DNA of 59,416 nt from a virus (Duplodnaviria; Caudoviricetes). Below the pieces are notes generated by a model that was not told the origin of the DNA, ran no database searches, and saw nothing but the letters and a program-made list of their open reading frames with translations. A program made the position numbers and the translations under genes. This document shows positions 27,871 through 58,998 of this stretch, piece after piece (position 1 is the stretch's first letter; each line of letters begins with the position of its first letter). The stretch spans positions 1 to 59,416 of IMG/VR virus record IMGVR_UViG_3300025402_000010, one strand, 5' to 3'.

Positions 27871-28632
27871 TTAATGCTCTCCACTTTTTTCAAGACGATC
27901 AAATTCTTCTGAGGCACCTTCTGGCAATGAACCATGGTGAACAGTTAACACATCGTGACCTAAATGTGTTCCAATGTAAGAACTAGAATCTTGTTTAAGC
28001 TGTGTTAATTCAACCACTTTCCACCCTGGTTGTGGTTTGAAACTATAATCTTTTCCAATTTCTAATCTTGGCCAATCGGCAATTGCTCTAGATGGGGGGT
28101 CATGCTCAAGAATGTATGGTGTGCTTCCATCTTCAGGCATTTGGTGATTTAATAAAACACCTACACTAATTTTCCCATTTTCTTTTTTAGAAAATTGTGT
28201 AAATATTCCAGGCAATTCTAGTTTGCTTCCATCATGAGTTGGAATATCTGAATAACGTCTAAATACGGCATCGTTTTTAAATCTAGGGTGGACAAACAAT
28301 GTTAAATCTTGTGGAGCCATATATAAAGGTTGGGTAGCACCACGTGTTGCATGATATTCTTGAATTAATGGGTGTTTAATCCTATCCCACATTGGTATTT
28401 TTTTATCGAAGTCATCAGCATGTTCAGTGCCAGCAAATGGGTTCTTGGTGTTTTTTCTTCTTCTGTAAACACTTCCAGCTACTCCAGAAAAACCAAAAAT
28501 TCTATCATCTGTATTTCCTGTCGTTGGTGGGCCAGAAAAAGTTGGTTCTTTAGAAAATTCGTCAATGCTTTCAATTTTTAAATGACCTCTACCAGGTACA
28601 GATTCATTAGCGTATCTTCTATTCCAATTCAT
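27871..28632 (-). CDS. Hypothetical protein with MNWNRRYA leader
   Basis: Likely start ATG 28632; carries the shared N-terminal motif. Confidence 0.6.
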   Translation of the reverse strand: MNWNRRYANESVPGRGHLKIESIDEFSKEPTFSGPPTTGNTDDRIFGFSGVAGSVYRRRKNTKNPFAGTEHADDFDKKIPMWDRIKHPLIQEYHATRGATQPLYMAPQDLTLFVHPRFKNDAVFRRYSDIPTHDGSKLELPGIFTQFSKKENGKISVGVLLNHQMPEDGSTPYILEHDPPSRAIADWPRLEIGKDYSFKPQPGWKVVELTQLKQDSSSYIGTHLGHDVLTVHHGSLPEGASEEFDRLEKSGEH

Positions 28633-28846
28633 TACTATCCCCATGAATTAGAGGATCAAGATCTTTGTGGACATAGTTGTCAAGTTGTTGAAGTTCGCGT
28701 TCTTTTTTTCGTTGATCCATTTTGTCAGAAACAATTTTTTGTGTTATAATTGCAACTGGGGTAAGCAATTGAACAATCTCTCTAGCGGTAAGATCAATCA
28801 GCGGATTTGCTAACCGTTCGTTTCTATAACGTTCACTAAAGTTCAT
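28619..28846 (-). CDS. Small protein with MNFSERY leader
   Basis: ATGA-coupled to the upstream gene; carries the shared N-terminal motif. Confidence 0.55.
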   Translation of the reverse strand: MNFSERYRNERLANPLIDLTAREIVQLLTPVAIITQKIVSDKMDQRKKERELQQLDNYVHKDLDPLIHGDSNELE

Positions 28847-29265
28847 TTGATAAGTCCTCTAACATATTTCTCAGCTTCATAGTCGGCTGCAGCGGCTGTA
28901 TGGACGCCACCGTGACCTCTGTGGTGGAATAAGCAGAGCCATTCCAAGTTTTCTGCGCTTTCTACCCATGCACCAACAGTGTCAGGGTCAGATACGCCGG
29001 GATAGTCAACCTCGAGCCACTTAAGATCGACACCATTTTGTAGAGAAAACTCAATGTGAGTGTGGTGAAGCTCCAATGGAGCGTCTAGAGTACATTCACT
29101 AAAATCATTACGGTGCAAACCAACAGCGCACTGAGCAGTGTCTTTCGTTCTAGCTCGGTAGTGGCTGAAATCCACGTAGTGAGGGTCGCTGGTGCGCTCA
29201 GGATGAGCAGGATAGTGAATAGTATAGCGATGGGTAACATTTTGATCGTGTTCTTCTACAGTCAT
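28843..29265 (-). CDS. HNH-like His/Cys nuclease-fold protein
   Basis: CAVG...C...LELHHTHIEFS...NLEWLCLFHHRGHGGVH. Confidence 0.55.
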   Translation of the reverse strand: MTVEEHDQNVTHRYTIHYPAHPERTSDPHYVDFSHYRARTKDTAQCAVGLHRNDFSECTLDAPLELHHTHIEFSLQNGVDLKWLEVDYPGVSDPDTVGAWVESAENLEWLCLFHHRGHGGVHTAAAADYEAEKYVRGLIK

Positions 29266-31227: not shown

Positions 31228-32130
31228 TTACATGAAATCAACATCGGAGATTTCATAGGGAGTGTTATCGTCGTGTGCATTGGCTTCATTGAAACATTGT
31301 GGGCATGCAGCATCATTCATAACAGCGGTAAGGGGTACACCATGCTCACAAGTTTCTTCTTGTTGAGTTCTAGGAGCATGGTTTCTCACCATATTATCCT
31401 TCTTATGGTTAAAGTAGTTAGTGAACGGTGTAGGTACTTTAATACCAAGCATGCCTGCGCTACGGAGAGCTGCTAGTGTACCGTCATAAGCTGTTTCTGC
31501 TTCTAGTTTGTGGTCTGGGGTGCCCATAGCCCGCATTCTAAGGATGTCATCAATATCACGGGTGAGGCGTGCATGCTGCTCCGCTAGCTTAGAGTGACGA
31601 GCAGCTGTTTCCTCGTCTAGTTCGTTCTTAGGCTTGTTGCGGAAGTAATTGACAATGTTCTCAGCAGTGTTACCCATGGCATAAGCATTGTGATACTTGC
31701 TAAGAACATTAAAGGCTTTTTTGCTGTGGCCCCAGTGGGTATCTGTAATGTGATCAGTAACATTTGTGTGATTAAGGATTGCTGTACCAATAGTTCTAAG
31801 AACGTGTTGAACGGCGTCGCCCGTTCCCGCAGCAGTCTTTACAGAAGCAGTAGTGGTTCTGTTGATGCCCTCTAGCAATTGTCTCATGTGGTGTAGCTGT
31901 GCATCTCTATTAGAGTCTGCAGAGTCTCTAACACGATCAAGCTCTCCAGTGGTTTTAGCCATTTCACTAACAGCTTGCAAATCGTTATTAAATTTGCCTC
32001 GCATCTGTTGAGCAGTAAGTTCAGCCTGCTCTAGTGCTTCGTTAAAGCTCTCATGCTCACCACGGATAATGCCTGCGGCAGCAGGATTACCCTCAAGCTC
32101 ACTGGCGTAACGTAGTTTCCATGTAGACAT
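31228..32130 (-). CDS. Helical hypothetical protein with MSTWKLRYAS leader
   Basis: 300 aa; variant of the shared leader; internal TASVKTAAG; C-terminal CEHG...CPQC. Confidence 0.65.
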   Translation of the reverse strand: MSTWKLRYASELEGNPAAAGIIRGEHESFNEALEQAELTAQQMRGKFNNDLQAVSEMAKTTGELDRVRDSADSNRDAQLHHMRQLLEGINRTTTASVKTAAGTGDAVQHVLRTIGTAILNHTNVTDHITDTHWGHSKKAFNVLSKYHNAYAMGNTAENIVNYFRNKPKNELDEETAARHSKLAEQHARLTRDIDDILRMRAMGTPDHKLEAETAYDGTLAALRSAGMLGIKVPTPFTNYFNHKKDNMVRNHAPRTQQEETCEHGVPLTAVMNDAACPQCFNEANAHDDNTPYEISDVDFM

Positions 32131-32132
32131 GA

Positions 32133-32486
32133 TTAGTAGCTACCTTTAGGCTTAATGGACTCAAGGATCGTAGGCAGAATACTGCCTCCTTCTCTAACGT
32201 CATCAAAGTTGCGAGCATTCATATTAGGGTTTTCCCAGCTTTTGTGATTGTTAGCAACCTGGCTAAGGTAATCAGCAAGCTGTTTTGATCCTTCATCCCG
32301 GTTGTATCTGTACACCCAGTGAGCTCGAGCAGCACCAATATGTGCATTCATTCTGTCATAGTCACCAACTTTGTTGGCTTCTTGAGCAAGATCAGCGTGA
32401 CGTCTAATATAACGGTCAGTAATTTCGTGCTCTCCAGAATCATCACCAGCAGTACGGATATTCCACATGTCATTAATAAAGGGCAT
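32133..32486 (-). CDS. Hypothetical protein with WNIRTA leader
   Basis: AAAGGA RBS before ATG 32486; first gene of the leftward operon. Confidence 0.6.
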   Translation of the reverse strand: MPFINDMWNIRTAGDDSGEHEITDRYIRRHADLAQEANKVGDYDRMNAHIGAARAHWVYRYNRDEGSKQLADYLSQVANNHKSWENPNMNARNFDDVREGGSILPTILESIKPKGSY

Positions 32487-32523
32487 AATCAATCCTTTCG
32501 TATACTTCCTATACCAAAAAGTG

Positions 32524-32552
32524 TTGCTTTTTACATTGCGGACCTATATACT
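32524..32552 (+). promoter_or_regulatory. Sigma70/SigA-type promoter
   Basis: TTGCTT (32524-29), 17-bp spacer, TATACT (32547-52). Confidence 0.55.
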
Positions 32553-32598
32553 TAATAACACCAAACAAACAATGGTGTGTGTGGTTGGTATGCAACTT

Positions 32599-32646
32599 GA
32601 AAGCCCCTCTCTAGGAAATTCCTGGAGGGGGTTTTCTATTTACTTT
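32599..32646 (+). terminator. Intrinsic terminator
   Basis: GAAAGCCCCTCTCTAGGA-AAT-TCCTGGAGGGGGTTTTC then TATTTACTTT; G:U pairs fit the plus-strand RNA. Confidence 0.7.
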
Positions 32647-32759
32647 AGTGCACTTAGTATTGCAAAAGGGGTCTTAGGCCCCCCGCGATTTTTTTATACG
32701 TGCTTCGTGCCTGCCCATTTGGCCCCCTTCTTGGCCCCTTTTTTAGTGCACCTAGTATT
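32644..32759. repeat. Direct repeat TTTAGTGCACYTAGTATT flanking an inverted AAAAGGGG/CCCCTTTT pair
   Basis: Copies at 32644-32661 and 32742-32759, located at the strand and GC switch. Confidence 0.6.
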
Positions 32760-33162
32760 CAAAGTCCAAAAAGTTGCCATCCTATTATTTGCCTTACTGT
32801 GACGTTTGCATCACCAGCAGAAAAAGATTATGAACTTCTTTTGGTATTCGCCAACTAAGGCGGTACTCCTAACTCAAGGGTGTCCCCGAGAGTGTCACGC
32901 ACGGTATCTCACAGGCATTGTGTGCTGTGAGGGTGTGTGATCGTGCCAGCGTAGACGTAATGCGTCGTGCTGCGTAGTCAAGAGTACTACGAATGCCTCT
33001 CCACGCGTGTGAGCACTGTGCTGCTCAACAATACACGTCTCTGGTGCTGAAGAGTTAGCTGCAGGCGAGGTTCATCAGGAACTACGGTATCCACTACGGT
33101 ACCGTGGTTCGTGATGTGCAACGTATGCACGGGCAGTACCAATAGTCCTGAGGAGGACAACT

Positions 33163-33561
33163 ATGCAGTATTTGGTAATCAACACTTACCGTGACTTCCC
33201 TTTGTTCGGGGGTTGTCACTGGAGTCTTGAGGAGGCTTTCGAGGAAGTCGTCGCTGGTTGGCGCAGTGACATCGAAGAGCCGATCGTCATGAGGCCAACA
33301 ATGGACTACCCATTCGCCAACCGCGTCTCTCTCGAAAAGTCGGGCGAGGACTGGAAGCCAACTCCATTCAAGGCATGGACGACCGGTCCTGACCACCTGA
33401 ACCACTGGTACATCGTGCCATTGTTCGAGTGGGAAGACCGGATGTGCCTTGCAGACGAGCGCACTCCAGAGACAATCGATCAGGGTGATGAGCTCAAGGC
33501 ACAACTCCGTAGGGAGTTCAGCGAAGAGCTTGTCTTCTCCCCAGACGTTACGTCATTGTAA
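33163..33561 (+). CDS. Hypothetical acidic protein (first gene of plus-strand block)
   Basis: GAGGAGG RBS; biased codons. Confidence 0.7.
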   Translation: MQYLVINTYRDFPLFGGCHWSLEEAFEEVVAGWRSDIEEPIVMRPTMDYPFANRVSLEKSGEDWKPTPFKAWTTGPDHLNHWYIVPLFEWEDRMCLADERTPETIDQGDELKAQLRREFSEELVFSPDVTSL

Positions 33562-33675
33562 CATCCGGTGGATGCACTGACTCACGTACAGGATCATTTG
33601 TACGTGGGTTGTGTGGGTCAACCGGGACTCAGTGTCATAGTGGTCGTGCTATGGCGCTTGAAAGGAGGTGAAATC

Positions 33676-33969
33676 ATGACTAAATTTGATGTTTACAAGG
33701 CTGCTAGGGACGCTGCTGAGGCTAAGGTCGAAGCTGCTTTGGCTGCTTACGACGATGCTGGGGCTACGTACTACCCTGCTTTGGCTGAGCTCTGCGCTGC
33801 TCAGGCTGAGCTCGAGGCTGTTAAGGCTGCGTGCAAGGCTGCGTACGACGCTGCTGCGCTCAAGGCTGCTTCGGCTAAGTACAAGGCTGCTTTGGCTGAG
33901 CTCTACGCTGCTAAGGCTGCGTACGACGCTGCTTGGGCTGAGTACAAGGCTGCTAAGGCTGAGCAGTAA
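33676..33969 (+). CDS. Alanine-rich helical repeat protein
   Basis: AGGAGGTGA RBS before ATG 33676; repeated AAYDAA, ALAEL and KAA units. Confidence 0.75.
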   Translation: MTKFDVYKAARDAAEAKVEAALAAYDDAGATYYPALAELCAAQAELEAVKAACKAAYDAAALKAASAKYKAALAELYAAKAAYDAAWAEYKAAKAEQ

Positions 33970-34081
33970 ATAGTCCGGCTCATGCTAGGACCCACGAAGG
34001 AACATCGTCGTGGGTCTCATGGGTCAGTCGGACCCAGTGATCATGACGGTCGTGTCATGACACTTGAGAGGAGGTGAAATT

Positions 34082-34240
34082 ATGACAAATCGTCGCCGCA
34101 GGGCATGGCGCCCCTCTGAGCTGTCTCAAGTCACAGCTCGGTACATCACATTAATTGGATGTGGTGCTGCGATTGCTGCTTCTGCAGTAGTCAGCGTTTG
34201 GATCTTTGTAGAGACTCTTCGTCTCTGCTTCGGTCACTAG
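34082..34240 (+). CDS. Small single-TM protein (52 aa, below ORF-track cutoff)
   Basis: AGGAGGTGA RBS; MTNRRRRAW...LIGCGAAIAASAVVSVWIFV... Confidence 0.65.
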   Translation: MTNRRRRAWRPSELSQVTARYITLIGCGAAIAASAVVSVWIFVETLRLCFGH

Positions 34241-34321
34241 TTCTTCGTTGGGTTCCCACCCAGCACTGCGTGTGTTAGGCAAGCACGTGGTTTAGTAAGT
34301 GCCTAGAAAGGAAACGATACC

Positions 34322-34657
34322 ATGGAATACTTTTACAAGGTTACCTGGTCGTATCAGTCAACCGTCGGTCGGATTGACGAAGACAACTACGAAAGGGTTA
34401 AGTATCGTCCATACATTGGTGTAGTAGAGCCAATGGTCCGCTACTTCAAGTCACTTGAAGACGCAATGGAGTTCTACTCTTCTTACGACTTCACATTCAC
34501 TGTGGACTACGGCCTCGTGGTTGGCGAGCGTTTTGACACGGCAGAAGAACCCTTCTTCCCAGTCAGCGTGGACAACGAGCTCATTGAAGAAGAGACCACC
34601 ATCATCACCACCACTCTCGTTGTAAAGCGAGAGTGCTTCACTGAGATTACTTATTAG
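34322..34657 (+). CDS. Hypothetical protein
   Basis: GAAAGGA RBS. Confidence 0.65.
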   Translation: MEYFYKVTWSYQSTVGRIDEDNYERVKYRPYIGVVEPMVRYFKSLEDAMEFYSSYDFTFTVDYGLVVGERFDTAEEPFFPVSVDNELIEEETTIITTTLVVKRECFTEITY

Positions 34658-34731
34658 TTTCTCATCCGTTCATACGGTATGCGTTGAGCAAACATGCCGT
34701 GCAGTAAGTGCTCAGAAAGGAGGGGGTCATC

Positions 34732-34938
34732 ATGAAGACCAAGACCACCCCACGCACCGCAGTTAGCATCGCTACTGCTCCCAAGTGCTCCTGTGGCTAC
34801 ATCCCCTTGTTCGTCGACTCAACTGTTTGGGTTGACCGCGAGGGTAACAAGCTCCCAGGTATTGTTCCAGTATCCATGACGATCGATGGAGTCCAGCACT
34901 CCGTTGAGAAGTGCGGTACTGAGACCAAGCGCAAGTAG
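34732..34938 (+). CDS. Small Cys-containing protein
   Basis: AAGGAGG RBS before ATG 34732; CSCG. Confidence 0.65.
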   Translation: MKTKTTPRTAVSIATAPKCSCGYIPLFVDSTVWVDREGNKLPGIVPVSMTIDGVQHSVEKCGTETKRK

Positions 34939-35048
34939 TACTCAGGTAGTGCCCTGGCAGGGGGCGTTGTACTCTGCTATCCCATCAACCAACTATAGGT
35001 CCAGTGACTAGGTTTGTCATAGCCTAGCACTGTAGAGGAGGTGAAATT

Positions 35049-35360
35049 ATGACTAAGTCAACCCGCAACATGCGCTTTGCGCAGGTAGTGAAGGAGGAGC
35101 TCTCAGACGTCCTCGTTCGTCCTACCGTGCTCAGCTTCGATGCTATCCAGGAGAAGATTGCTTACTTCGACTCCATGATGGCTCTCGACGCTGACGGTGT
35201 GTGGAAGAAGTGGTACCCACGTACCACTCGTATCACACGCGCTCGCAAGCTTGAGGCCCACTTCTGTGTGGAGAACCCCAAGCAGATCGACGCACGTTCC
35301 AAGAAGGAGCGTCGCCTCGTGTTCTGCGAGACCTGCATCGAGTTCGAGGCAGGACTGTAG
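35049..35360 (+). CDS. Hypothetical protein with C-terminal CxxC
   Basis: AGGAGGTGA RBS; strong codon bias. Confidence 0.7.
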   Translation: MTKSTRNMRFAQVVKEELSDVLVRPTVLSFDAIQEKIAYFDSMMALDADGVWKKWYPRTTRITRARKLEAHFCVENPKQIDARSKKERRLVFCETCIEFEAGL

Positions 35361-35540
35361 TAGGTAACCCATCTAGGTAAGCCCGTGTGCCTAGACGCTG
35401 ACTGTGTAGTACGTGCAGTCAGTGGGTGGGGGTCACTCCCCACCTGGGTACGGTTACCCACGGGTAACCCCCGGCGACTGGGTTAAGTCGAATTATCACA
35501 CGAACGTATTGTGTGACGTAACAAACATTAGGAGACTGCC

Positions 35541-36416
35541 ATGAAGGCATCTACTTTTGTGTCCCTGTCCACCCTCGACTTCAACGAGGAGGAGCTGTCA
35601 ACTGACCTTGACATCCTTCTCTTCGCTGACGAGGAGACGTCCGCTCAGTCAGACGGAGCCGTGCGTGTAGCGCGTCTCAACAAGACTGAGGCCATCACCC
35701 TGTCAGGTCTTTCTACTGACCTGGTGATCGGTCGCGGGCTCGCTGACTTCCGCAAGGAGTACTTCGACTGTGTCGTTGACTCCGAGGGGAAGATTGGTAG
35801 CTTCGTAGGCAAGCCCCTCCCCCAGGGTATTGTCTTCGACGCCACCTCCAAGCGTGACCGTGCGTACGGTACCCACGTGTACAACATTGCAGCGGCTCTG
35901 TCGCCTGCCTCTGTTGTCCACAGCGGTATGGTCTACGGTAAGTCGTTCCTGGCTAACCGTATGCAGGTTCAGATTGCATCTGACTTGCAGACCGACCCTC
36001 GTACCGGTGAGAAGTTCTACTTCATCGGTGTGCGTCGCTTCGGTATCCTCTCAGAGGCTACTGACTTCGCGTACCGTGACACCGGTCGTGGTGGCGTGCA
36101 GGCGCGTATCAAGTTGTACACCAACGTTGAGAAGGGTACCTTCTACTTCAAGGTGTTCAACAAGCTCACGCAGAAGCACGACCGCATCTACCAGGTTCCT
36201 GGTGACGTGCAGTGGTACGACCTCGTTAAGACTCGTCTTAACATGGCTCTGCCATCCGGCGCGTCGCGGTTGGACATCTACACCTCCGAGCTCAACAAGC
36301 TCGACGAGAACGTTGCTGAGGACCTGCGTGGTACCCAGCTGATGTTCTTCGAGGTGTACAAGACTGCCAAGGCTGCTATCATCGCGGCCAAGGTAGTGGA
36401 CGCCCCACAGGCCTAG
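35541..36416 (+). CDS. Hypothetical protein, apparently highly expressed
   Basis: 291 aa; AGGAG RBS; very strong codon bias. Confidence 0.75.
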   Translation: MKASTFVSLSTLDFNEEELSTDLDILLFADEETSAQSDGAVRVARLNKTEAITLSGLSTDLVIGRGLADFRKEYFDCVVDSEGKIGSFVGKPLPQGIVFDATSKRDRAYGTHVYNIAAALSPASVVHSGMVYGKSFLANRMQVQIASDLQTDPRTGEKFYFIGVRRFGILSEATDFAYRDTGRGGVQARIKLYTNVEKGTFYFKVFNKLTQKHDRIYQVPGDVQWYDLVKTRLNMALPSGASRLDIYTSELNKLDENVAEDLRGTQLMFFEVYKTAKAAIIAAKVVDAPQA

Positions 36417-36857: not shown

Positions 36858-36926
36858 GGAGTACACCGATTGGTGGAGAGTATTCAACCAGGTGCCTAGG
36901 GTCTAGGGCCTAGTTGTAACTCAAAT

Positions 36927-36942: not shown

Positions 36943-36962
36943 TATGTGTTTGTCTAAGCATA

Positions 36963-51112: not shown

Positions 51113-52159
51113 TTATGGTTTGCTACCACCAACAAACTTGGTAGAAGCATATCTAGTGATTGAGAAGTTACTAGATCGTTGTGACCAACTCAATGAAGTA
51201 ATTGATATTATGGAGGAAGAACTATGAAAGTATATGAAGTAACATGCGGGTTAACCGTAGTGTTGGAAGCAGAGACTCAGGAAGATGCTGAGAAAGCAGC
51301 TCGCCAGTTAGTTGATGGTGAGTTGGGTAGCCAGGTAGGCAAGATGATGTGGTACCAAGTAAAGGATAATAATGAATCTAAGTGAGAAACAATTGCGTTG
51401 TCTTCTAGAAATTATAGAAGCTGACATGGAATATGCTGAGATGACTGCGGACATGGAGTTTCGTGGTTTTCTTGGTGAGCTACACACAGAATTACAATCA
51501 GAGTTGTACAACAAAATGAAAGTGAAGTAATCATAATGGATAATCCAAATGAACCAAAGAACTGTCCACGCTGTAAGCAAATCTATGTAGGGTTCCCCGC
51601 CCTATCTAGGTTGGATAACAAGTCACGCATCTGCTCGCCCTGTGGTATGGACGAAGCATTGCAGGACTTTACATGTGTACCACTAACCAATTTCCTTGAG
51701 GAGGAAGAATGAGAAAGTATGAAGTCACGTTAGTCATGGAGCTAGAATACAATCCTGATAAATGGGATTGGGGTTCTCTCTTAGATTTAAACGTCACTGA
51801 GACACTTGAGTCAGTCAAAGTAGAGGAGTTATAATGAATTCAGAAACATCAATCATCTCAGGTGCAAAGTCATTAGTCCTGTGGGCTATTGATGATGCAA
51901 AAAGGAATGGTAGTTTGGAACACGCTATCCATAACCTTAAGCGCATCTACGCATTCCTGGCAGACGAAGAGTTTGTAACAGAAAAACAAGGAAAGGAGGC
52001 ATAATGGATGAAGTAACTAAAGATAACCTAGAAGAATGGTTTGAAGAGATTGATTTTACTGATTTAGATCAAGATGATCTTGATGAGTTGAACAATGAGT
52101 TGGACAAAGCTCGGGCATCAGTCTTTGAAACATTCCTCAATGAGTTCCCAATCAAGTAA
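51099..52159 (+). other. Run of about seven tightly coupled small ORFs (40-60 aa)
   Basis: Manual reading finds starts at 51099, 51224, 51372, 51536, 51709, 51834 and 52004, mostly with GGAG/GAGG RBS and overlapping stop/start codons. Confidence 0.6.
51536..51712 (+). CDS. Small zinc-finger protein
   Basis: CPRC...PALSRLDNKSRICSPCG...EAL, a common phage motif. Confidence 0.7.
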   Translation: MDNPNEPKNCPRCKQIYVGFPALSRLDNKSRICSPCGMDEALQDFTCVPLTNFLEEEE

Positions 52160-52169
52160 GGAGTAAGTT

Positions 52170-52571
52170 ATGATATGTGAACCATGTGATCATGGACCTA
52201 CTGTATATGAAAACTATTGTCAACATTGCAATGGTTTATGCCCCATATGTAGTGAGATGGGTGAGTGTGACACCTGTGGTAGAGAATATGAATTAGCTAG
52301 CCGTGATGGTCGTTGTGGTGACTGTGGTGACTGTAGTTCATGTTGTACACATACTGAGGAGGAAACAATGAGTAAGTACCTTATCCGTGACTGGATGAAC
52401 AACATCCTGTTTGATGGTATTGAGTTTGATAGTTTTGAGGAAGGGTGGGATTGGTTGTATGCCAACCACCCTGAGCCAGATGAATCAAGCCCCGACTGGG
52501 TTGACGGTTGGAACGACGACTGGTTTGTAGTAGAGAAAGGTTACAGTGTAACCGGAAAGAAGGAGGAATAA
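52170..52571 (+). CDS. Cys-rich protein, possibly two fused genes
   Basis: Many CxxC in the first half; an internal GAGGAGG RBS precedes in-frame MSKYLIRDW. Confidence 0.55.
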   Translation: MICEPCDHGPTVYENYCQHCNGLCPICSEMGECDTCGREYELASRDGRCGDCGDCSSCCTHTEEETMSKYLIRDWMNNILFDGIEFDSFEEGWDWLYANHPEPDESSPDWVDGWNDDWFVVEKGYSVTGKKEE

Positions 52572-52573
52572 CA

Positions 52574-52738
52574 ATGGCTAAGTATCAAACGTCATTTGTT
52601 ATTGATGTAACAATCAATGCAATTAACAGGGACGAAGCCCAAATAATTATAGATGAGATTGTTTTTGATGTTGCCTCAAGGGGTGGCAAAAAATATAAAT
52701 ACAATTTGCATCAGACCCTAGACATGAAAGAAGAATAA
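52574..52738 (+). CDS. Small hypothetical protein
   Basis: AGGAGG RBS; MAKYQ...VTINAINRDEA. Confidence 0.55.
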   Translation: MAKYQTSFVIDVTINAINRDEAQIIIDEIVFDVASRGGKKYKYNLHQTLDMKEE

Positions 52739-52740
52739 CA

Positions 52741-52917
52741 ATGGATAAATGGACTAGGTTCACCTACGTTTGCGAAGACATTGATGAGTGTGATACGCTT
52801 GTTCAAGCAACGTCCCGCAAAAAGGAACTGTACTATACGTGGTGCCTTGCCTGCGGCAAGCGTCTTAACCTTATTAACATGGAAGACGCAACAGTAGAAG
52901 AAGTAGAGTTAGAATAA
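52741..52917 (+). CDS. Small zinc-ribbon protein (58 aa)
   Basis: Manual translation MDKWTRFTYVCEDIDECDTL...WCLACG. Confidence 0.55.
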   Translation: MDKWTRFTYVCEDIDECDTLVQATSRKKELYYTWCLACGKRLNLINMEDATVEEVELE

Positions 52918-53017
52918 CAACTAACTCCTATCATTACATATACTAAGTATTGCACATAAGTTGGTGCCTGCTAAGTGTTGTAGATCGCAGTAAATAAACA
53001 AACAAGTAAGAGGGAAT

Positions 53018-53254
53018 ATGGAAGATAGTAAGTTATTTCAAGCGCACGCTGCAGTAGTTCAGATACATGAGCTAGCAGGTCGGTTTGATGAGTTGCTTGA
53101 TGGCTTTAAGTTGTATGACGAGTACAAAGGCAACTTAGATATCGACGTGTACGAAAAAGCTCTCGAGCTATACCGTAAAGCTATGAACGCCATGGATGAG
53201 CAATGTAAGTTATTGCATGCTGTGGCTAACTGTCTTGATGATGTGTTTAAATAA
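53018..53254 (+). CDS. Hypothetical helical protein
   Basis: GAGGG RBS. Confidence 0.6.
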   Translation: MEDSKLFQAHAAVVQIHELAGRFDELLDGFKLYDEYKGNLDIDVYEKALELYRKAMNAMDEQCKLLHAVANCLDDVFK

Positions 53255-53272
53255 ATAAGGAGGCAGTAATGT

Positions 53273-53959
53273 ATGGATAAATTAGATAATGTAGTTAGCA
53301 AAATTGAAAAGTTGCTAACTCTAGCCGGTCGCTCCCCATTCCCGGGCGAAGCAGAAGCAGCTCAGGCACTGGCTCAAGAACTAATTACTAAATATCAAAT
53401 TGAGCAGGGTCGACTGTATAATCGTGACACTAGCTCTGGTATAGGTAATAGGAAGATTAATACTCCAGCGCCGTATGACGTAGACAAGAGTGTTTTACTC
53501 AATGCTATAGCTAAGAATAATTTCTGTAGAGTGCTACGCGGTGACGGTTACTGTTACCTCTATGGTACTGAAGATGATATTAAGCTATGTTTAGCATTGT
53601 ATAATACGCTTGTGGTGCATATGATTAGTGAGATGCCCGCCAAGCTAGCTAAAGCTAAGCAAAATAGTGATACTACGTTCCATAAGCGGACATGGATCAC
53701 TAGTTTCTTTGGCGGCTATTGCCTATCAATTGCAGAGCGTCTTAAAGCTATCAAGGATAAAACCATAGCAGATCAAGTTAAGGTTGATGCTTCGGTTAGT
53801 CTAGTAATACGTGATAAAGAACACGCTATAGAAGAGTTTTATCAAGGTATTGATCGTGATCCCGGCTACCGCCGTAATCTTAGCTCAGAATCAGGTTATG
53901 AATACGGTAGGGAAGCAGGTAACGAGGCAGACTTACTACAGACCAAGCTAAAGGAGTGA
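53273..53959 (+). CDS. DUF2786-domain protein
   Basis: KIEKLLTLA...EAEAAQALAQELITKYQI; SFFGGY...I.ERL; GYEYGREAG. Confidence 0.8.
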   Translation: MDKLDNVVSKIEKLLTLAGRSPFPGEAEAAQALAQELITKYQIEQGRLYNRDTSSGIGNRKINTPAPYDVDKSVLLNAIAKNNFCRVLRGDGYCYLYGTEDDIKLCLALYNTLVVHMISEMPAKLAKAKQNSDTTFHKRTWITSFFGGYCLSIAERLKAIKDKTIADQVKVDASVSLVIRDKEHAIEEFYQGIDRDPGYRRNLSSESGYEYGREAGNEADLLQTKLKE

Positions 53960-53960
53960 T

Positions 53961-54155
53961 GTGCAACTAATTTACGCTTTACTATATGACACAAGCTACA
54001 ATAGCATGGAGATCTCAGGTCTCTATGCAAGTTTAGATAAAGCTAAGGCTGCTGTGCCTGGCGCAGAGTGGAAGAAGCATGAGAATTTAGCTATGTGGGA
54101 AGCTATTACTGGTGAACAGTATTGGTGTATTACTGTGCATGCTATGTTAGATTAA
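53961..54155 (+). CDS. Small hypothetical protein (last gene of plus-strand block)
   Basis: AAGGAG RBS, GTG start; GLYASLDKAK. Confidence 0.6.
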   Translation: MQLIYALLYDTSYNSMEISGLYASLDKAKAAVPGAEWKKHENLAMWEAITGEQYWCITVHAMLD

Positions 54156-54177
54156 TTCTGCTATTCCAATTAATACT

Positions 54178-54762
54178 TTACCTTGGATCGTATAAGAAGT
54201 CAAAGTGTTTAGGTCTAATTACACCAGGTTGTAGCTTATATGGTTGAGTAGTGTTGTTTTTAAATGTTGGATGATTCATTTCTTTCTTCCAACCTCCGCC
54301 TTGCTGAGCCCAAGTAACACTTCTAAGGTGGCTAGCTGGTACCTCGCCTTGCACTACAGTAAAACCATTTGGACCAAATTGGCCACCCTCACCTCTGCGT
54401 ATACCATGCGTCTCAACACTGGTGGGGCTTATTCCTACCCAGTCACCACGATAAATAGCAGGTACGTGGTCTGCATCCTGAGCGCGATAAATAGTGATGG
54501 GAGCATTAGGTTTACCATGCACTTGTTTAATCATATTCATTAATTCATCATGTTCACTTGATGGAATATCATCTCGTCTAATACCAGGAGTAGGGTTTAA
54601 ATAAAGATTCACTAGTGAGTGCAAGTTACCACCAGGTTGTAAGTGGGGCCAAAGCTCGTGCAGAGGCACACCAATCATTGCATCTCGAGGGCTTAACTGA
54701 TCAGCAGGTATGTTAGGCGTAACTGCATTTATTGCTTCAGCGTAACGTAAATTCCAATTCAT
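54178..54762 (-). CDS. Putative internal virion protein with MNWNLRYA leader (possible ART-like fold)
   Basis: Shared leader; ITIYRA...GDWVGISP...HG pattern. Confidence 0.6.
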   Translation of the reverse strand: MNWNLRYAEAINAVTPNIPADQLSPRDAMIGVPLHELWPHLQPGGNLHSLVNLYLNPTPGIRRDDIPSSEHDELMNMIKQVHGKPNAPITIYRAQDADHVPAIYRGDWVGISPTSVETHGIRRGEGGQFGPNGFTVVQGEVPASHLRSVTWAQQGGGWKKEMNHPTFKNNTTQPYKLQPGVIRPKHFDFLYDPR

Positions 54763-55691
54763 TGTATCGGTTTATCCCATTTAAGTTCTTTACCCAATGC
54801 ATCAGAGAATGGAGAAAACTTTTTATGTCTTTCCCACATTCCATAACGTTCTAGTATATAGTTTTTATGCCATTCTGCATGTGCTTCAATTAAATTACTC
54901 TCGCCATACCCACTAATAGAATTAGTTTGAAGAACTTTCTTTAAACTATCAGGTGCATTGTCTTTCATTGCTATATATTGATCATTCATAGAATCAATAT
55001 CTGTGCCAGTATGTGCTGCGAGTGTGCTTGATACATGATCTAAAATAGGTTTCTTGTCTACTCTATCTTCAAATCTTGCGGTAGCGTTGTGGCGATCAAC
55101 AAGCATATCAGTGAACTTAAGTAGTTCGTCTGGTTTTCTAATAGCTCTGGTGTGTCCAAGTTCATGGGCAAGTGTTTGAGACAATACCATAGAATTTGTA
55201 GTATCATTCTCTTCTGCATACGGTATAGAAGAGTTGACATTTTTGCTGTCATTCGCAGACATTATGCCTGGGTCTTCAAAAAGATTGCCTATGTGTTCAC
55301 CGTGTCTAGTGAACCTAAAACTTACATCTCTGGCCAAAAGATCTAAAGCACTTAACGTATCACGAATTGATTCTGGATGATTGATTGGATTCCAATAAGC
55401 TCTTCTAGTATTTTCGTTCATCTTAGAGTGATCATAAATTAATGCAGTGTTGCCGGTGGCTCTATTGATTAACTTATGTACATCAGGTGTTTTTACTTTA
55501 TTGCGTCGAGCAAATGGTGAAGGGTCACCAAATGTTGGCTCTTCCCCTTCTCTTTTACTCCATTCCTGCGGAGCAAACCAATGTTCACCGTCTGGCTGTC
55601 CTGTTGTCTGGATCTCCCACCCTTCGGGCAGTACCGTTTCAAGCTCCCGTCTACTCTTGCGTGTTGTAGCGTAACGGGTAGACCAATTCAC
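54759..55691 (-). CDS. Zincin metallopeptidase-like protein with MNWSTRYA leader
   Basis: TLAHELGH (HExxH) and SGYGESNLIEAHAE (third-ligand Glu region). Confidence 0.7.
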   Translation of the reverse strand: MNWSTRYATTRKSRRELETVLPEGWEIQTTGQPDGEHWFAPQEWSKREGEEPTFGDPSPFARRNKVKTPDVHKLINRATGNTALIYDHSKMNENTRRAYWNPINHPESIRDTLSALDLLARDVSFRFTRHGEHIGNLFEDPGIMSANDSKNVNSSIPYAEENDTTNSMVLSQTLAHELGHTRAIRKPDELLKFTDMLVDRHNATARFEDRVDKKPILDHVSSTLAAHTGTDIDSMNDQYIAMKDNAPDSLKKVLQTNSISGYGESNLIEAHAEWHKNYILERYGMWERHKKFSPFSDALGKELKWDKPIQ

Positions 55692-56026
55692 GATTGCTCT
55701 CTCCCCACCATTAAACCGTGAATTGTAGTGTAACTTGCATTATCAATACTAGGCCCATGTACTACTGTGAATTTTCCACCTTTATGACCATCAAGCCCAT
55801 TAGGGTCATAAATTGCAGTATCTTCACTAGACTTTCTACATCCACCATTTGAGCAATGATGAATTATTGCCATAAACGGACGCCATTGCTCTCGGTACAT
55901 TTTTTCATTGCTTGTACCAGGCACTCTTCGCCATTGTTTATTACCAAAATTAAACTCATAGGCATTACTTAAACCACCTATGAACCTAGTGTTATCGTCA
56001 CTAGAGTAACGTAAATTCCAGTTCAT
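55688..56026 (-). CDS. Small protein with MNWNLRYS leader
   Basis: ATGA-coupled to the terminase; carries the shared leader. Confidence 0.6.
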   Translation of the reverse strand: MNWNLRYSSDDNTRFIGGLSNAYEFNFGNKQWRRVPGTSNEKMYREQWRPFMAIIHHCSNGGCRKSSEDTAIYDPNGLDGHKGGKFTVVHGPSIDNASYTTIHGLMVGREQS

Positions 56027-58758
56027 CGTCTACCTGGCCTTCCCCGAGACATACCACCGTAATCACGCTGTGAACGCTGCGCACCAAACACACGTAGCCT
56101 ATCTCTAGCAGAGACAGGTTGCATATCGTTAGCGTTGCGGGTGTGGTAGCCACCCTGAGAACCAGACAATAGCTGTGTTTGACCAAGTTTATCACGCATT
56201 TCTAGCTTAACAAAGTTATCTTCTAGTAGAGAATCAACAATAACCATGAGGCAGTCAGATAAGTCTTCTGTACGGATAGGTCCAATATCTTGCTTCTTAA
56301 CTCGACCATTGACCTCTTGCAAGAACTTTAGCTCTTGCTCTAGCAAACTTGTTCCATTGGGGCCATACACATCACGGAACGAGTGTACCCAATTCATACC
56401 CAATGCAGATTTGAATCGTTCAGCACGACGCATGTTGCTTTCTTTGGTAAATTTTTCTTCACGCACCTTAACCTGGTGGGCAGGTCTAACCTGTTGCAAA
56501 CGCTTTTTTAATCGTGGCAATGTAACAAACGCACCGTATTGGTCAAATGAGAAAACCTTAGTTGTACGGAAATTGCATAACGTATCAACTAATTCCTCCT
56601 CTATCTCTTCGTAGTCGATCTGATTATCAGGGTAGTTTTCGGGGTCCCATACCTTGATCCAGTCAATAACAACGTGGTACCACTCTTCACCGTCTTCAGG
56701 GTCAGCGATCTTTTCTACGTGACCAATCATGGCTGCTGTATTAGCACCGGATTTTGATGGGTCGCAGTGGCCCGTGTAAACAATGCTAAATTTGCCTTCG
56801 TGCTGTAGCTCAAGCTCTCGAAGCTCACCATTAGCATCAATAAACGGATCAAACATACGCTCAACCATTTTTGGATTGAGGTAAGCATTAGTAACTTCAG
56901 CCCATTGGCTTAGACGCTCAACCCTAAACGTGTCAGGCTCACGCTTTTCCATGGATTGCATTTGTTCGTCGTAGCTCTGAGGTGCACGACGGTAAAACGA
57001 AACAAATCTTGGGTCATCCCAGTCTTCGTATGGCCCCCACGATGGTAGCTGTGCCATCATCATGTTTGGATACATGGGTGCACCGTCTTCATTCTTCTCT
57101 AACGCAGACTCGTACAGGCTGTATGCTTTACCAACCTTGGTATTGTGGCTAAACATACCAGCAGCAAGCAATGTGCTAGTAGAAGTACCCAGAGCAATAA
57201 CATCGCGGTTGCCCGCATCTTCTATGGACTCAACAGTAACATACTTGGACGTCTTATCATAAATTCTTGTGCCATAGAATTGGTTAGTAAATTTTGAGAG
57301 TAAACGACGTGGTCGGATTGAACCGAGGAACTTCATCTTTTCCGATGAACCACCATTGATAATAATATCAATGCAATCTCTTCCTTCTTCTTTTAATGTT
57401 GTGCTAATATCACAACCACGTTCGATAAGTAACTCAACGATGTTATCTAATACTGGGCCTTTATTCTGTGCTATGCCGAGCAAACCCTGCTTAGAATAAT
57501 AACCTTCGCCATCGAATATCCCTGAAAGATAACCAGCATCGTATGATTTGTCTGTTTCCCATGTATCCGTGTAACGAATCATGTCACCCGGCTTAAGATT
57601 TTTGGTTTTAACCCAGTTTAATTCAGAAGAATAAGGCTTCTTTGTTAGCCAAAGGTGCTCACCGGTGCAAACAACTTCAGGACCATCAGTTTTTAATTTA
57701 AGTGTTGGAGCGTTGATAATAGATGTTTCTTCAACGACTGCTTGACGCCAGCTTCTACCGTTGCCCTTGCCACCTGGAGCATACTCATCAAAACCAATTA
57801 TCTTATCCCCGACTTTTAATGAACCGACAGGAACCCACGTGAGGTCTTCTAGAAGGACCGGAGTCTCCGGTACCAAACAAAACGGTGATGTGGGTACGTA
57901 AATCAAACCATCTTTACCCATCTGGTCCAATGCAGGGGTAATAGCGTTGTATACTTCGTCAGACGTTCTTGCACCACCCGTACCGACCAACATGTGTGCA
58001 AACTCGTCGAACATAACGCCAAAGGCAGCAGCACCACGCGAGGCTTTAGAGTTACTCGTCACAGCCATGTTACGGATACTAGCGATCAAACGGCTAGGTC
58101 TGATGTCTCTCGATTCAAATGCGGCGATGCGTCTGATGTCAGCAGGCGTACGCAAAGCAAGAAAGTGCTCCTTAGCGTCAGCAATATATGGCTGGAAGCA
58201 TGGAGCATTAATGATGGTGTTTGCAAGGTCAGCAAACTGGTATTTCTTAGCCTGTTCAATGTTCGTAGCAACGCAAAACAGGTAAAGGTCTTTTGACTTG
58301 TCAATGTTGTAGTAGTACTGGGGGTCGTCAAGCATAAGCAGTTCCCAGTTTTTATATGCACCCAGGATTCCGCCAATGTGGCCCTTACCGCCACGACGAC
58401 CCGTGATGTTTACCACTTCACGAAAATGCTTGTAACCATTTGCTTTCAAGTATGCGATCCGGTCAAGGATGTCCGGGCTTACGCCTATTCTATCACCGTT
58501 AAAATCAAAATCTTTGGTCCACTTATCAATGATTTCGTAGTCATAATCGTCAAGGTTTTCTGTCTCAAGCATGATAAGTTTAAGAAGCGTGCGTTGACGT
58601 GGGAAAAGCTTACTACCACCCAAGAAGCTTGGGTGCTCAGCAAACGTGACAATATCAGGTAGATCAGCCTTTTCTTTGAGGCTTTTCTTGGCTATCTCAA
58701 AGAAGTCTTGCTGTCCACGAAGAATGTTAGCATTACTATTCTTTGTAATTTTAGGCAT
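56023..58758 (-). CDS. terL: Terminase large subunit (intein-containing)
   Basis: Adenine-binding FPRQ, Walker A GRRGGKG, Walker B VMFDE, nuclease HCDPS...FDQY...EDLSD. Confidence 0.88.
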   Translation of the reverse strand: MPKITKNSNANILRGQQDFFEIAKKSLKEKADLPDIVTFAEHPSFLGGSKLFPRQRTLLKLIMLETENLDDYDYEIIDKWTKDFDFNGDRIGVSPDILDRIAYLKANGYKHFREVVNITGRRGGKGHIGGILGAYKNWELLMLDDPQYYYNIDKSKDLYLFCVATNIEQAKKYQFADLANTIINAPCFQPYIADAKEHFLALRTPADIRRIAAFESRDIRPSRLIASIRNMAVTSNSKASRGAAAFGVMFDEFAHMLVGTGGARTSDEVYNAITPALDQMGKDGLIYVPTSPFCLVPETPVLLEDLTWVPVGSLKVGDKIIGFDEYAPGGKGNGRSWRQAVVEETSIINAPTLKLKTDGPEVVCTGEHLWLTKKPYSSELNWVKTKNLKPGDMIRYTDTWETDKSYDAGYLSGIFDGEGYYSKQGLLGIAQNKGPVLDNIVELLIERGCDISTTLKEEGRDCIDIIINGGSSEKMKFLGSIRPRRLLSKFTNQFYGTRIYDKTSKYVTVESIEDAGNRDVIALGTSTSTLLAAGMFSHNTKVGKAYSLYESALEKNEDGAPMYPNMMMAQLPSWGPYEDWDDPRFVSFYRRAPQSYDEQMQSMEKREPDTFRVERLSQWAEVTNAYLNPKMVERMFDPFIDANGELRELELQHEGKFSIVYTGHCDPSKSGANTAAMIGHVEKIADPEDGEEWYHVVIDWIKVWDPENYPDNQIDYEEIEEELVDTLCNFRTTKVFSFDQYGAFVTLPRLKKRLQQVRPAHQVKVREEKFTKESNMRRAERFKSALGMNWVHSFRDVYGPNGTSLLEQELKFLQEVNGRVKKQDIGPIRTEDLSDCLMVIVDSLLEDNFVKLEMRDKLGQTQLLSGSQGGYHTRNANDMQPVSARDRLRVFGAQRSQRDYGGMSRGRPGRR
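57142..57879 (-). mobile_element. Intein with LAGLIDADG homing endonuclease in terL (246 aa)
   Basis: Begins CLVPETPV after PTSPF; block B CTGEHLWL; YLSGIFDGEG; ends FSHN followed by Thr. Confidence 0.9.
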
Positions 58759-58761
58759 GTA

Positions 58762-58998
58762 TTACCAGTCTGCGTCGAGATCCATGTAATCGTTGCGCCA
58801 GTCGCTTGGGTCTAAGCTAACATTACCATGTTTGTGTGCCATCATAGCTTTGAATGCTTCGATAGCTTTCTCACGGCTATCATGATGAGACAAGACCTTA
58901 CCCGTACCTTTTTGTATGATGACCCACTTACCATCACGCTCTTTAATGTATTGGTAGTGGTCTTTCTTTTCTTTAGCATAACGCTCGTTGAAGTTCAT
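58762..58998 (-). CDS. Small putative head protein with MNFNERYA leader
   Basis: Shared leader; IKERDGKWVI...GKVLSHHDSREKA motif often found in phage head-associated proteins. Confidence 0.6.
   Translation of the reverse strand: MNFNERYAKEKKDHYQYIKERDGKWVIIQKGTGKVLSHHDSREKAIEAFKAMMAHKHGNVSLDPSDWRNDYMDLDADW

Follow-up and report, generated by a model that had tools for sequence, protein, structure and literature searches.

The internal proteins of phage T4 form a diverse set that shares only a capsid-targeting sequence (CTS), as two accounts describe (PMC3012670, PMC5694885). In giant phages of the phiKZ/SPN3US type the head precursors are cut at multiple sites, and their propeptides are considered to direct proteins into the prohead; the same source (PMC5694885) names AXE and SXE as the kind of site used by giant-phage prohead proteases, and describes two SPN3US paralogues, gp53 and gp54, that have an identical 15-residue N-terminus with AXE and SXE sites. 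A third system is the host cysteine protease Prp, which removes a short N-terminal motif found on the non-homologous ribosomal protein L27 and the capsid and scaffold proteins of phage 80alpha (PMC5744158).

The window, that is, the whole stretch of 59,416 nt analysed here, is an IMG/VR fragment with a phage portal of the Bxz1/Pupper-like type. It contains six minus-strand ORFs that begin with M/V-N-[WF]-[NS]-x-R-Y, referred to below as the tag. These ORFs and the other genes of interest, together with orthologues or homologues in related records and loci (numbered G and L), are the following:

59014..59416, minus strand: 3' part of the gene of a helical head-associated module, whose N-terminus lies past the window end; the G004 orthologue (92% identity) starts MNWNLRYAKD
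58762..58998, minus strand: 78-aa tagged protein MNFNERYAKE..., with a DUF2188 body (PF09954, E 2.3e-5), directly upstream of TerL
56023..58758, minus strand: large terminase TerL, 911 aa, with a 246-aa intein; anchors one variable slot of tagged genes
55688..56026, minus strand: 112-aa tagged protein MNWNLRYSSD..., without known family
54759..55691, minus strand: 310-aa tagged protein with a GTG start, VNWSTRYA..., and an H-E-x-x-H motif (likeness to Peptidase_M90 is a lead only); the L024 orthologue is tagged too
54178..54762, minus strand: 194-aa tagged protein MNWNLRYAEA..., with a body like the 'ParB C-terminal domain' PHROG (phrog_2579, E 3.4e-12)
32133..32486, minus strand: small protein opening the leftward operon; its tag, M-P-F-I-N-D-M-W-N-I-R-T-A-G-D, is extended and degenerate
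31228..32130, minus strand: 300-aa protein with a variant tag, M-S-T-W-K-L-R-Y-A-S-E
28619..28846, minus strand: 75-aa tagged protein MNFSERYRNE..., in a second variable slot; the G001 orthologue (~29% identity) starts MSNWNKRYN
27871..28632, minus strand: 253-aa tagged protein MNWNRRYANE..., also in the second variable slot; the L030 homologue, directly downstream of TerL, is tagged as well
25774..26676, minus strand: 300-aa conserved protein with a truncated tag, M-K-Y-A-D
20727..21275, minus strand: C92-like peptidase of 182 aa (permuted papain-like; PF05708 at E 2.8e-5, which falls short of the curated cut-off), an alternative candidate tag peptidase
10459..12807, minus strand: 782-aa protein with the core motif Q-F-N-S-K-Y-A-I-D at residues 6-14, four genes upstream of the portal
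3746..4405, minus strand: head maturation protease, 219 aa (phrog_18299, E 9.2e-26; phrog_2774, E 2.3e-64), a candidate tag-removing enzyme

The six canonical starts listed in a preliminary description of this DNA are all present on the minus strand, one of them with GTG: 58998 (MNFNERYA), 56026 (MNWNLRYS), 55691 (VNWSTRYA, GTG start), 54762 (MNWNLRYA), 28846 (MNFSERYR) and 28632 (MNWNRRYA). For ORFs 58998 and 28632 a start 3-4 codons earlier is also possible; in relatives, the same M-N-F/W start is preceded by a stop codon at a distance of 2-5 codons. When the window is translated in six frames, N[WF][NS].RY matches six times, in every case directly after ATG or GTG and never off a start codon, compared with 6.2e-5 expected at 100 called N-termini and with a mean of 0.115 (maximum 1) after shuffling the window 200 times. 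As had been claimed, the motif heads none of the plus-strand ORFs of the window, the nearest being 48861 (M-K-Y-A-I-T); it is also absent from the N-termini of the capsid, cement, scaffold-like, protease and portal proteins of the window. The full motif reads [M]-[NSD]-[WF]-[NS]-x-[RK]-Y-[AS]-x-[ED].

The variants proposed earlier fared unevenly. Those at 32130 and 12807 fit the core, and the latter motif is kept in G004, while those at 15414 and 23318 are not convincing. At 32486, T replaces Y, likewise in the G004 relative, and the extended form of this tag occurs in G004 also at 602 and 977. The variant at 26676 is a truncated form; its orthologue in G002 starts M-N-K-F-E-E-R-Y-R, and the tag is absent in those of G001 and G005.

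Codon usage in 37 strict leaders bears out the synonymous variation reported in the preliminary description: N2 is encoded by AAC in 20 and AAT in 17, R6 by CGN in 22 and AGA in 14 (one leader has Lys AAA), and Y7 by TAC in 27 and TAT in 10, while position 4 is Asn (AAY) in 28 or Ser (TCN) in nine and position 5 is unconstrained. The 30 nt upstream of the tag carry a purine-rich ribosome-binding signal and otherwise no conserved DNA. Since synonymous codons vary freely and the upstream DNA is not conserved, selection on the tag acts on the peptide and not on the DNA. One could still suppose that the peptide has no function, and that the shared stretch is either a DNA/RNA element over the start codon or a relic of a single ancestral gene, whose 5' end was inherited while recombination supplied new bodies. 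Cassettes gained and lost at fixed slots could recombine via the shared stretch of ~24 nt, and many tag starts overlap the stop codon of the upstream gene. However, freedom at synonymous sites, the use of either Arg codon family and of AAY or TCN at residue 4, the unconstrained codon 5, the lack of upstream conservation beyond the ribosome-binding signal and the confinement of the pattern to start codons in the window all speak against it, as does the persistence of the motif on bodies that are only ~29-36% identical (the 194-aa protein and its homologue, with 36% overall identity, keep M1, N2, W3, N4, R6, Y7 and A8 invariant). This explanation is extremely improbable: codon variation and the unconserved upstream DNA reject the start-codon DNA element that the preliminary description had set against its own reading, and a DNA/RNA element in general is largely refuted by the codon data.

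Behind the tag, the proteins have little in common. In related contigs 64 distinct tagged ORFs fall into 32 unrelated body clusters once 12 residues are taken off (blastp E 1e-5), which upholds the earlier statement that the bodies are otherwise unrelated. Singletons make up 20 of the 32 clusters, and the mean column identity in alignment A1 is 6%. One cluster counted among the 32, p57 ('Holliday junction resolvase'), is a false match of the relaxed pattern and should be dropped. An ordinary paralogous family with a shared N-terminal domain was rejected, as the similarity does not extend beyond the first 10-12 residues; true paralogues of G001, by contrast, share >60 residues. In a redundant set comprising the window and 40 loci, 67 of 76 motif matches lie directly after a start codon.

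With a median pI of 7.3 against 5.5 for other ORFs, the tagged bodies are comparatively basic; they include a DnaQ-like exonuclease (two members), ParB-like nucleases, an amidase, cupins, zinc ribbons and HTH repeats. Five of the six canonical tagged proteins of the window have no match in Pfam. A tblastn search against cultured phages returned nothing for the 310-aa and 253-aa proteins and, for the 194-aa protein, a sole match to the 'ParB C-terminal domain' of mycobacteriophage Myrna gene 78; a word-based protein search with the latter found a near-identical sequence only. The ART-like label once given to the 194-aa protein could not be maintained, with no Pfam match even at E 5; an ADP-ribosyltransferase reading was rejected, the putative S-x-S and E not being conserved in the homologue and a PARP lead of 0.81 being its only trace. 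MuF-type polymorphic virion toxins were likewise rejected: such toxins have an N-terminal MuF (head morphogenesis) domain before a variable body, and among the seven Pfam families matched by the 62 tagged proteins scanned there was no MuF family.

In structure prediction, tag residues 1-12 have pLDDT <50 beside a confident body, suggesting that the tag is flexible. A mostly N-terminal, flexible element that is not part of the fold might be a stability or expression signal, such as an N-terminal degron or a nascent peptide affecting translation, that gives a common short lifetime or dose to potentially harmful accessory proteins. Consistent with this, the carriers are accessory and some are potentially harmful (nucleases, the peptidase-like protein), and the tag has been gained, truncated or lost among relatives on one conserved protein (26676). 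Nevertheless, conservation extends to positions 8-10, conserved internal copies are hard to square with an N-degron, and the tag is not known to match a bacterial degron class, which leaves such a signal very unlikely.

The tag is also found between the modules of fused proteins. This occurrence at module junctions had been missed in the preliminary description. Among the 81 proteins examined (P0001-P0081, which take in the 13 matches of the profile search and one match of the word search, that with the 194-aa protein), 26 are fused proteins with two or three copies of the motif, and the internal copies keep [RK]-Y-A. Many of the apparent fusions retain an internal Met and may be two genes in one frame.

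Copies at module junctions would suit a processing signal without any targeting role, read by a peptidase of its own such as the C92-like papain-fold enzyme; multi-module precursors would be cut apart and N-termini trimmed in the cytoplasm, as by the host Prp. In the tag an aromatic residue is followed by a small residue and then Ala, as at the F|A site of Prp (PMC5744158). The C92-like enzyme was found in G001, G002, G004 and G015 and is absent from the complete leaderless records G005 and G010. It was not found in G006-G008 either, nor in G011-G014, which are four of five further leader-plus records, all incomplete, and its Pfam score is below the curated cut-off. Enzymes of this kind usually serve the cell wall or lysis. 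Moreover, trimming 8-10 residues off a free N-terminus would have no obvious purpose without a second role, and the frequent internal Met may mean that many apparent precursors are in fact pairs of in-frame genes. A pure processing signal is thus distinctly unlikely.

The other candidate for removing the tag is the head maturation protease. The sequence A/S-x-E/D at positions 8-10, which resembles the giant-phage sites, is present in 26 of the 37 strict leaders as counted by hand; the acidic residue at position 10 is absent from the other 11, and from three of the six in the window, and W3, R6 and Y7, the best conserved residues of the tag, lie away from the positions that a Glu-directed protease would recognise. 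The structural model of the protease has a mean pLDDT of 50 and is too poor for a fold search to be meaningful. A complex prediction of the protease, the 242-aa scaffold-like protein and the capsid protein against a 30-residue tag alignment scored 0.00, a 'no answer' that counts neither way. The 242-aa protein is not clade-specific and is fused to the scaffold gene in G005.

The most conserved tagged body is the helical module, and it is associated with head genes. Other phages carry it untagged, as a fusion to prohead proteases, to portals and to a protease-capsid polyprotein; it forms, for instance, the N-terminus of a 974-aa Peptidase_S78 and Phage_capsid fusion in Roseobacter phage CRP-821, and in the three other phages inspected it also lies among head genes. 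All four inspected homologues from cultured phages start without the tag. The module matches 59 BFVD models at E <= 1e-3, and among the 50 matches listed nine are named prohead protease, three XkdF and four portal; its fold search gave no PDB match at E <= 0.001. Separately, a profile search of PDB sequences gave nothing useful. The module was found in eight leader-plus sources (G001, G003, G011, G012, G013, G015, G004, which is the source of the query, and the window, with a partial copy), was not found in three of 11 leader-plus records (G002, G009 and G014, all incomplete) and is present in none of six leaderless records. Most of the records used are 50-89% complete. Fused elsewhere to proteases, portals and enzymes, the module may perhaps be an address domain.

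Tagged genes occupy slots of varying content, both next to TerL and where the morphogenesis operon begins. Between the same two conserved genes there are no ORFs in L006, two in the window, three in G004 and G001 and four in L015, nearly all tagged. Downstream of TerL, leader-plus relatives have 0-3 ORFs, mostly tagged, and six leaderless relatives have no tagged ORF at this place. A 59-kb fragment carries up to 7-9 tagged genes, and ~30 body families are found across the clade. The phages that use the tag form a clade of uncultured freshwater, Bxz1/Pupper-like actinophages. The best matches of the portal (~40% identity) are from Gordonia/Mycobacterium cluster-C-type myophages, and by the first word of the organism name the 227 matching records comprise Mycobacterium (209), Gordonia (9), Rhodococcus (4), Bacillus (2), Mycolicibacterium (1), Eggerthella (1) and 'Virus' (1). 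No T4-type phage is among them, and descent from T4-like head genes was rejected on this ground; as the portal lineages are unrelated, the likeness to T4 is one of analogy. Leaderless G005 has a 92% identical capsid protein and no tagged genes, and its DUF2188 domain is part of a 477-aa protein and is not preceded by the motif.

Outside the clade, the first 50 kb of Gordonia phage Pupper yielded no copy of the motif, and with one codon pattern 596 Gb of bacterial contigs gave four matches, which by estimate is about chance. An extension of the Prp/L27 type was rejected on this result and on the lack of the motif at the capsid and scaffold N-termini. A profile search with the tag (HMMER) gave 13 matches at E <= 1e-3, few because a single tag copy scores too low, and a word-based search gave 76 proteins at E <= 10 with one family dominant; neither count measures the breadth of the tag. 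No description of this motif was found in the literature, searched at the level of abstracts and selected passages.

The position of tagged genes on both sides of TerL raises the possibility that the tag docks onto a hub other than the capsid interior, such as the packaging motor (TerL or the portal exterior), the replication/recombination machinery or a host protein, and recruits accessory enzymes with no need of cleavage. That W/F, R/K and Y are the most conserved residues, and not a cleavage residue, is typical of a docking motif; internal copies keep [RK]-Y-A, and therefore a free N-terminus is not required. Several bodies, comparatively basic, would act on DNA (the DnaQ-like exonuclease, the ParB-like nuclease, zinc ribbons, HTH repeats), but the H-E-x-x-H protein, the amidase and the cupin are unsuited to a role in DNA packaging, the second slot is 25 kb away from TerL, and the head interior is indicated by the most conserved carrier, a module that elsewhere is joined to prohead proteases and portals. 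Docking to such a hub is possible, though rather doubtful.

The best explanation, with a probability of roughly 0.4, might be that the tag is a capsid-targeting tag like that of the T4 internal proteins, perhaps cut at A-x-E/D. The tag would then be an address label, a flexible peptide, probably helical and anchored by W3, R6 and Y7, which docks onto a component of the assembling procapsid; the attached protein would be enclosed in the head and later leave with the DNA, and the head maturation protease may trim the tag, or cut multi-module precursors, at A/S-x-E/D. This explanation is favoured by a tag that is real, non-random, modular and selected as a peptide, by gene slots of variable content, like the T4 internal-protein loci, and by the add-on nature of the tag, seen from the untagged homologues of the helical module and the untagged DUF2188 of G005. 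The head association of the main carrier, the flexibility of the tag, the maturation protease gene, the A/S-x-E/D sequence, the basic bodies and the T4 precedent are also in its favour. It is weakened by carriers that resemble ordinary intracellular DNA enzymes, by the leaders without an acidic position 10 and the conservation of W3, R6 and Y7 away from the site that a Glu-directed protease would read, and by the missing motif on the capsid, scaffold-like, protease and portal proteins. If the shell were the receptor, nothing in the capsid protein marks the difference from tagless G005; in addition, the head-associated module is missing from the three incomplete leader-plus records. The earlier inference of a modular address tag thus stands in that a peptide-level modular tag is found on exchangeable unrelated proteins and the T4 CTS is its closest analogue, and the address itself is retained as the possible function.

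A bolder version, which we consider unlikely, is that virion cargo is organised as a cassette system in which the tag both addresses a module and marks where it is cut. Tagged accessory genes would be shuffled among a few fixed slots, strung into multi-module precursors, loaded into the procapsid via the tag and released by cleavage, giving a polymorphic arsenal of ~30 families injected with the DNA.

If the tag is a capsid address, this would be the first CTS-like system outside T4-like phages, in phages that infect abundant, hard-to-culture freshwater Actinobacteria. Sequence alone would then label the whole set of proteins delivered with the DNA; the ~30 families so far, nearly all of unknown function, would be candidates for counter-defence or host take-over, and the tag would provide a minimal peptide with which foreign proteins could be brought into the heads of actinophages. 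Should the tag instead mediate docking to another hub, few networks built on a short linear motif have been documented in phages, and this would still count among them. Either way there is a testable handle, one peptide with one binding partner to find.

Compared with known systems, the propeptides of phiKZ/SPN3US-type phages are mostly >100 residues long and common to paralogues only, whereas the 8-10 residues of the tag are shared by unrelated bodies. The Prp/L27 motif similarly has aromatic-Ala at its end, with a small or charged residue after it, but in this phage the capsid and scaffold proteins are without the motif and the carriers are accessory proteins. With MuF-domain polymorphic toxins and the P1 Dar proteins, it is a folded domain or a partner protein that directs the cargo to the head; these, too, are exchangeable enzymatic bodies delivered with the virion, although the element here is a linear peptide of 8-10 residues and not a domain. 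In encapsulins, a short linear cargo-loading peptide brings unrelated enzymes into an HK97-fold shell; it is typically C-terminal and binds the shell protein, whereas the tag is N-terminal or internal. The T4 CTS (IPI-III, Alt) differs in its motif and belongs to an unrelated phage lineage; here the motif also stands between modules of fused proteins and is spread over ~30 body families. The likeness to the T4 system is that an N-terminal peptide of 10-20 residues is the sole common part of diverse, fast-changing accessory proteins; the loci are variable, the gene of a prohead protease is there, and most of the tags are followed by A/S-x-E/D.

Six minus-strand ORFs of the window, starting at 58998, 56026, 55691, 54762, 28846 and 28632, open with nearly the same peptide, and all six starts proposed in the preliminary description were confirmed exactly. 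Our proposal for the function of this tag, [M]-[NSD]-[WF]-[NS]-x-[RK]-Y-[AS]-x-[ED], given a probability of roughly 40%, is that it would be a capsid address loading proteins into the head. Six-frame translation of the window gives six matches to N[WF][NS].RY, always (6/6) directly after ATG or GTG, while 6e-5 matches are expected for 100 N-termini and shuffles give 0.115. For a slightly wider pattern, a start codon precedes 67 of 76 matches in the window and 40 loci, a redundant set in which contigs overlap and pieces of the window are present in two copies. Removal of duplicates left 64 distinct tagged ORFs, 41-473 residues long, whose bodies (first 12 residues removed) form 32 single-linkage BLAST clusters, including 20 singletons. 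One of the 32, p57, is a false match of the relaxed pattern. Synteny places all loci recovered by the DNA pattern alone in this one phage clade.

A nucleic-acid or purely historical explanation of the shared start seems highly improbable: the tag is invariant although the bodies have diverged to 36% or about 29% identity, and in 37 strict leaders third codon positions vary freely, as had been noticed earlier for a few codons (AAT/AAC, CGT/AGA, TAC/TAT). Asn2 is encoded by AAC (20) or AAT (17), Arg6 by CGN (22) or AGA (14) and Tyr7 by TAC (27) or TAT (10); position 4 has Asn (AAY) in 28 leaders and Ser (TCN) in 9, and codon 5 is without constraint. These observations show that conservation acts on the peptide, so that a DNA element overlapping the start codon, named as a refuting condition in the preliminary description, does not hold. 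The 30 bases upstream hold only a purine-rich ribosome-binding signal.

New relative to the preliminary description are copies of the core [WF]-[NSDE]-x-[RK]-Y-[AST]-x-[ED] inside longer proteins, at module junctions, usually preceded by Ser-Ser, Ala-Ser, Gly-Ser or a retained Met. Among 81 library proteins (P0001-P0081), 66 have one copy within the first six residues and 26 have two or three copies; some of the latter may be two genes in one reading frame. Since junction copies of diverged sequences keep R/K-Y-A, a free N-terminus is probably not needed for the motif to work. A role as a degron or expression tag is considered quite unlikely.

Most tagged carriers belong to no known family. 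Pfam matches among 62 tagged proteins were DUF2188 (3/62), RNase_T-type exonuclease (2), cupin (2), amidase (1), ParB-like nuclease (1) and zinc ribbons, to which PHROGs adds ParB-type and DNA-binding repeats. The H-E-x-x-H motif described earlier is present in a 310-aa protein of the window, its Peptidase_M90-like family being a lead only; the ART-like label given to the 194-aa tagged protein is unsupported, and a 'ParB C-terminal domain' PHROG was the match for this protein. The median pI is 7.3 for tagged bodies and 5.5 for other ORFs, the former being the more basic. The DUF2188 proteins (window 58762-58812 and relatives) end in a conserved acidic tail, S-D-W-R-N-D-Y-x-D-L-D-x-D-W, with the W-x-x-x-Y spacing of the tag; this tail may have arisen from a tag copy by decay, or may be a complementary motif. 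In contrast to the tagged proteins, five tail-fibre-like proteins of relative G001 (34943-48769, L062-L063) are ordinary paralogues whose common N-terminal domain (M-P-R-x-x-Y-S-x-N...) is longer than 60 residues.

The window is a complete IMG/VR virus record of 59,416 bases with a completeness rating of 39%. A minus-strand operon covers the first 32.5 kb, reading toward base 1, with the head genes at its end:
5484-7817, minus strand: portal, end of the operon
3746-4405, minus strand: head maturation protease, end of the operon
minus strand, end of the operon: two scaffold-like proteins, cement protein and start of the major capsid protein
32.5-54.2 kb, plus strand: opposite-strand block
54.2-59.4 kb, minus strand: second minus-strand block, with the large terminase (TerL)

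The portal shares about 40% identity with the portals of Gordonia/Mycobacterium cluster-C-type myophages such as Pupper, so the earlier 'Bxz1-like' placement is sound. Part of the opposite-strand block differs in base composition (G+C about 0.46-0.53 at 32000-46000 versus 0.37-0.44 in 10-32 kb and 46-58 kb). A small protein in this block (50864-51112, plus strand) shows, by eye, a WhiB-like cysteine pattern, which fits an actinobacterial host. Genes for tRNA-Tyr, Gln, Asp and Asn (19125-20226, minus strand) lie on both sides of the gene for an HNH endonuclease (19303-19980); another tRNA, the fifth (42983-43054, plus strand), scores 60 bits in Rfam, its anticodon being not assignable by ARAGORN.

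Via terminase, 25 related viral contigs were recovered, and four large relatives (G004, G001, G002, G005) were taken in full. Tagged genes occur in relatives with terminases at least 64% identical, G009 having one, and are absent at 61% or below (G005, a complete genome with terminal repeats, G006-G008 and G010). Gordonia phage Pupper has none in its first 50 kb, and the four exact-pattern matches in 596 Gb of bacterial and archaeal genomes are about as many as estimated for chance.

In G004, tagged genes are confined to the initial 5 kb of the long rightward operon and to 103-107.5 kb, around the terminase; the opposite-strand block has none, nor do any stand among the genes for tail, glycosyltransferase or replication functions. 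A variable slot bounded by two conserved genes, at 28843-29265 and 27134-27862 of the window, holds no ORF in locus L006, two in the window, three each in G004 and G001 and four in locus L015, nearly all tagged and most mutually unrelated. Directly downstream of the terminase, leader-plus relatives have 0-3 ORFs, mostly tagged, and six leaderless relatives have none tagged. Because a homologue of the window's 253-aa tagged protein occupies the terminase slot of another phage, tagged genes move between slots, tag included. Docking of the tag to another hub, for example the packaging motor, is a possible though doubtful alternative to the capsid address.

TerL of the window (56023-58758, minus strand) has 911 aa, and its counterpart in G004, 97% identical, has 665 aa. 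The additional stretch of 246 residues (294-539; window 57142-57879) begins with Cys, ends with His-Asn and is followed by Thr, an intein signature. The insertion is missing in most relatives; terminases of similar length occur in L016-L018.

In most leader-plus phages the gene directly upstream of the terminase codes for a tagged protein whose helical module spans about 100 residues (L005:1151-1459 in G004, an unnamed domain; 3' part at window 59014-59416). AlphaFold gave pLDDT 70-90 for residues 17-117 and below 50 for tag residues 1-12. Homologues of this widespread phage domain occur in 71 cultured-phage records, of which four were inspected:
Roseobacter phage CRP-821: N-terminus of a 974-aa fusion with Peptidase_S78 and Phage_capsid
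Vibrio phage 1.112.O: head of a 444-aa protein beside portal and MuF-like genes
Synechococcus phage S-CBS4: between portal and capsid genes
Vibrio phage K455: head of a 'DNA methyltransferase' between head morphogenesis and major head genes

The tag precedes the module in none of the four. Since these homologues are fused to head genes or lie among them, the module is a head-associated domain, standalone in the tagged clade, where the tag was acquired; it may itself be a head-address domain. It matched 59 predicted viral structures at E <= 1e-3, and names among the best 50 of these include prohead protease (9), portal (4), XkdF (3), Dps, ParB/sulfiredoxin and HAD-like. Its fusion partners across phages are enzymes (Dps, ParB/sulfiredoxin, HAD, a methyltransferase) as well as portals, prohead proteases, XkdF-like proteins and a protease-capsid polyprotein.

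Protease, zinc-ribbon protein (3045-3773) and scaffold (1435-3048) are three separate genes in the window; the latter two form one 540-aa gene in G005 (47900-49522), and Pupper gene 94 is annotated as a single 1082-aa 'capsid maturation protease', which makes a split or fusion series of the head-assembly polyprotein. The portal of leaderless G005 (50879-54400) has 1173 aa versus 777-780 aa in leader-plus phages.

As a capsid address, the flexible tag would dock in the procapsid during assembly as a short helix, one face of which carries W3 and Y7, next to R6, so that the docked protein would become enclosed in the head; the head protease might then cut at A/S-x-E/D after the tag. This site is found in 26 of 37 strict leaders. 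Counted against the proposal are the 11/37 leaders missing the acidic residue, some carriers that are ordinary DNA enzymes, and a capsid protein that is 92% identical in leaderless G005. Alternatively, the tag might be a signal for a dedicated peptidase, which is unlikely; the weak candidate is a 182-aa permuted papain-like protein (20727-21275, minus strand), Peptidase_C92-like below the cut-off, which is 72-93% identical among G001, G002 and G004 and absent from the complete leaderless G005 and G010.

The motif was not found described in the literature at the level of abstracts and partial texts, and no name beyond 'hypothetical protein' is attached to any of the 76 library proteins with a listed match at E <= 10. 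Giant phages are described as having AXE and SXE sites, multiple precursor cuts and identical N-termini on diverged head proteins (PMC5694885), and in T4 the targeting sequence can be the sole common feature of diverse internal proteins (PMC3012670). T4 already provides a case of unrelated phage proteins sharing an N-terminal tag; new here are the motif itself, the lineage of the phages, the copies at module junctions and how many carrier families there are.
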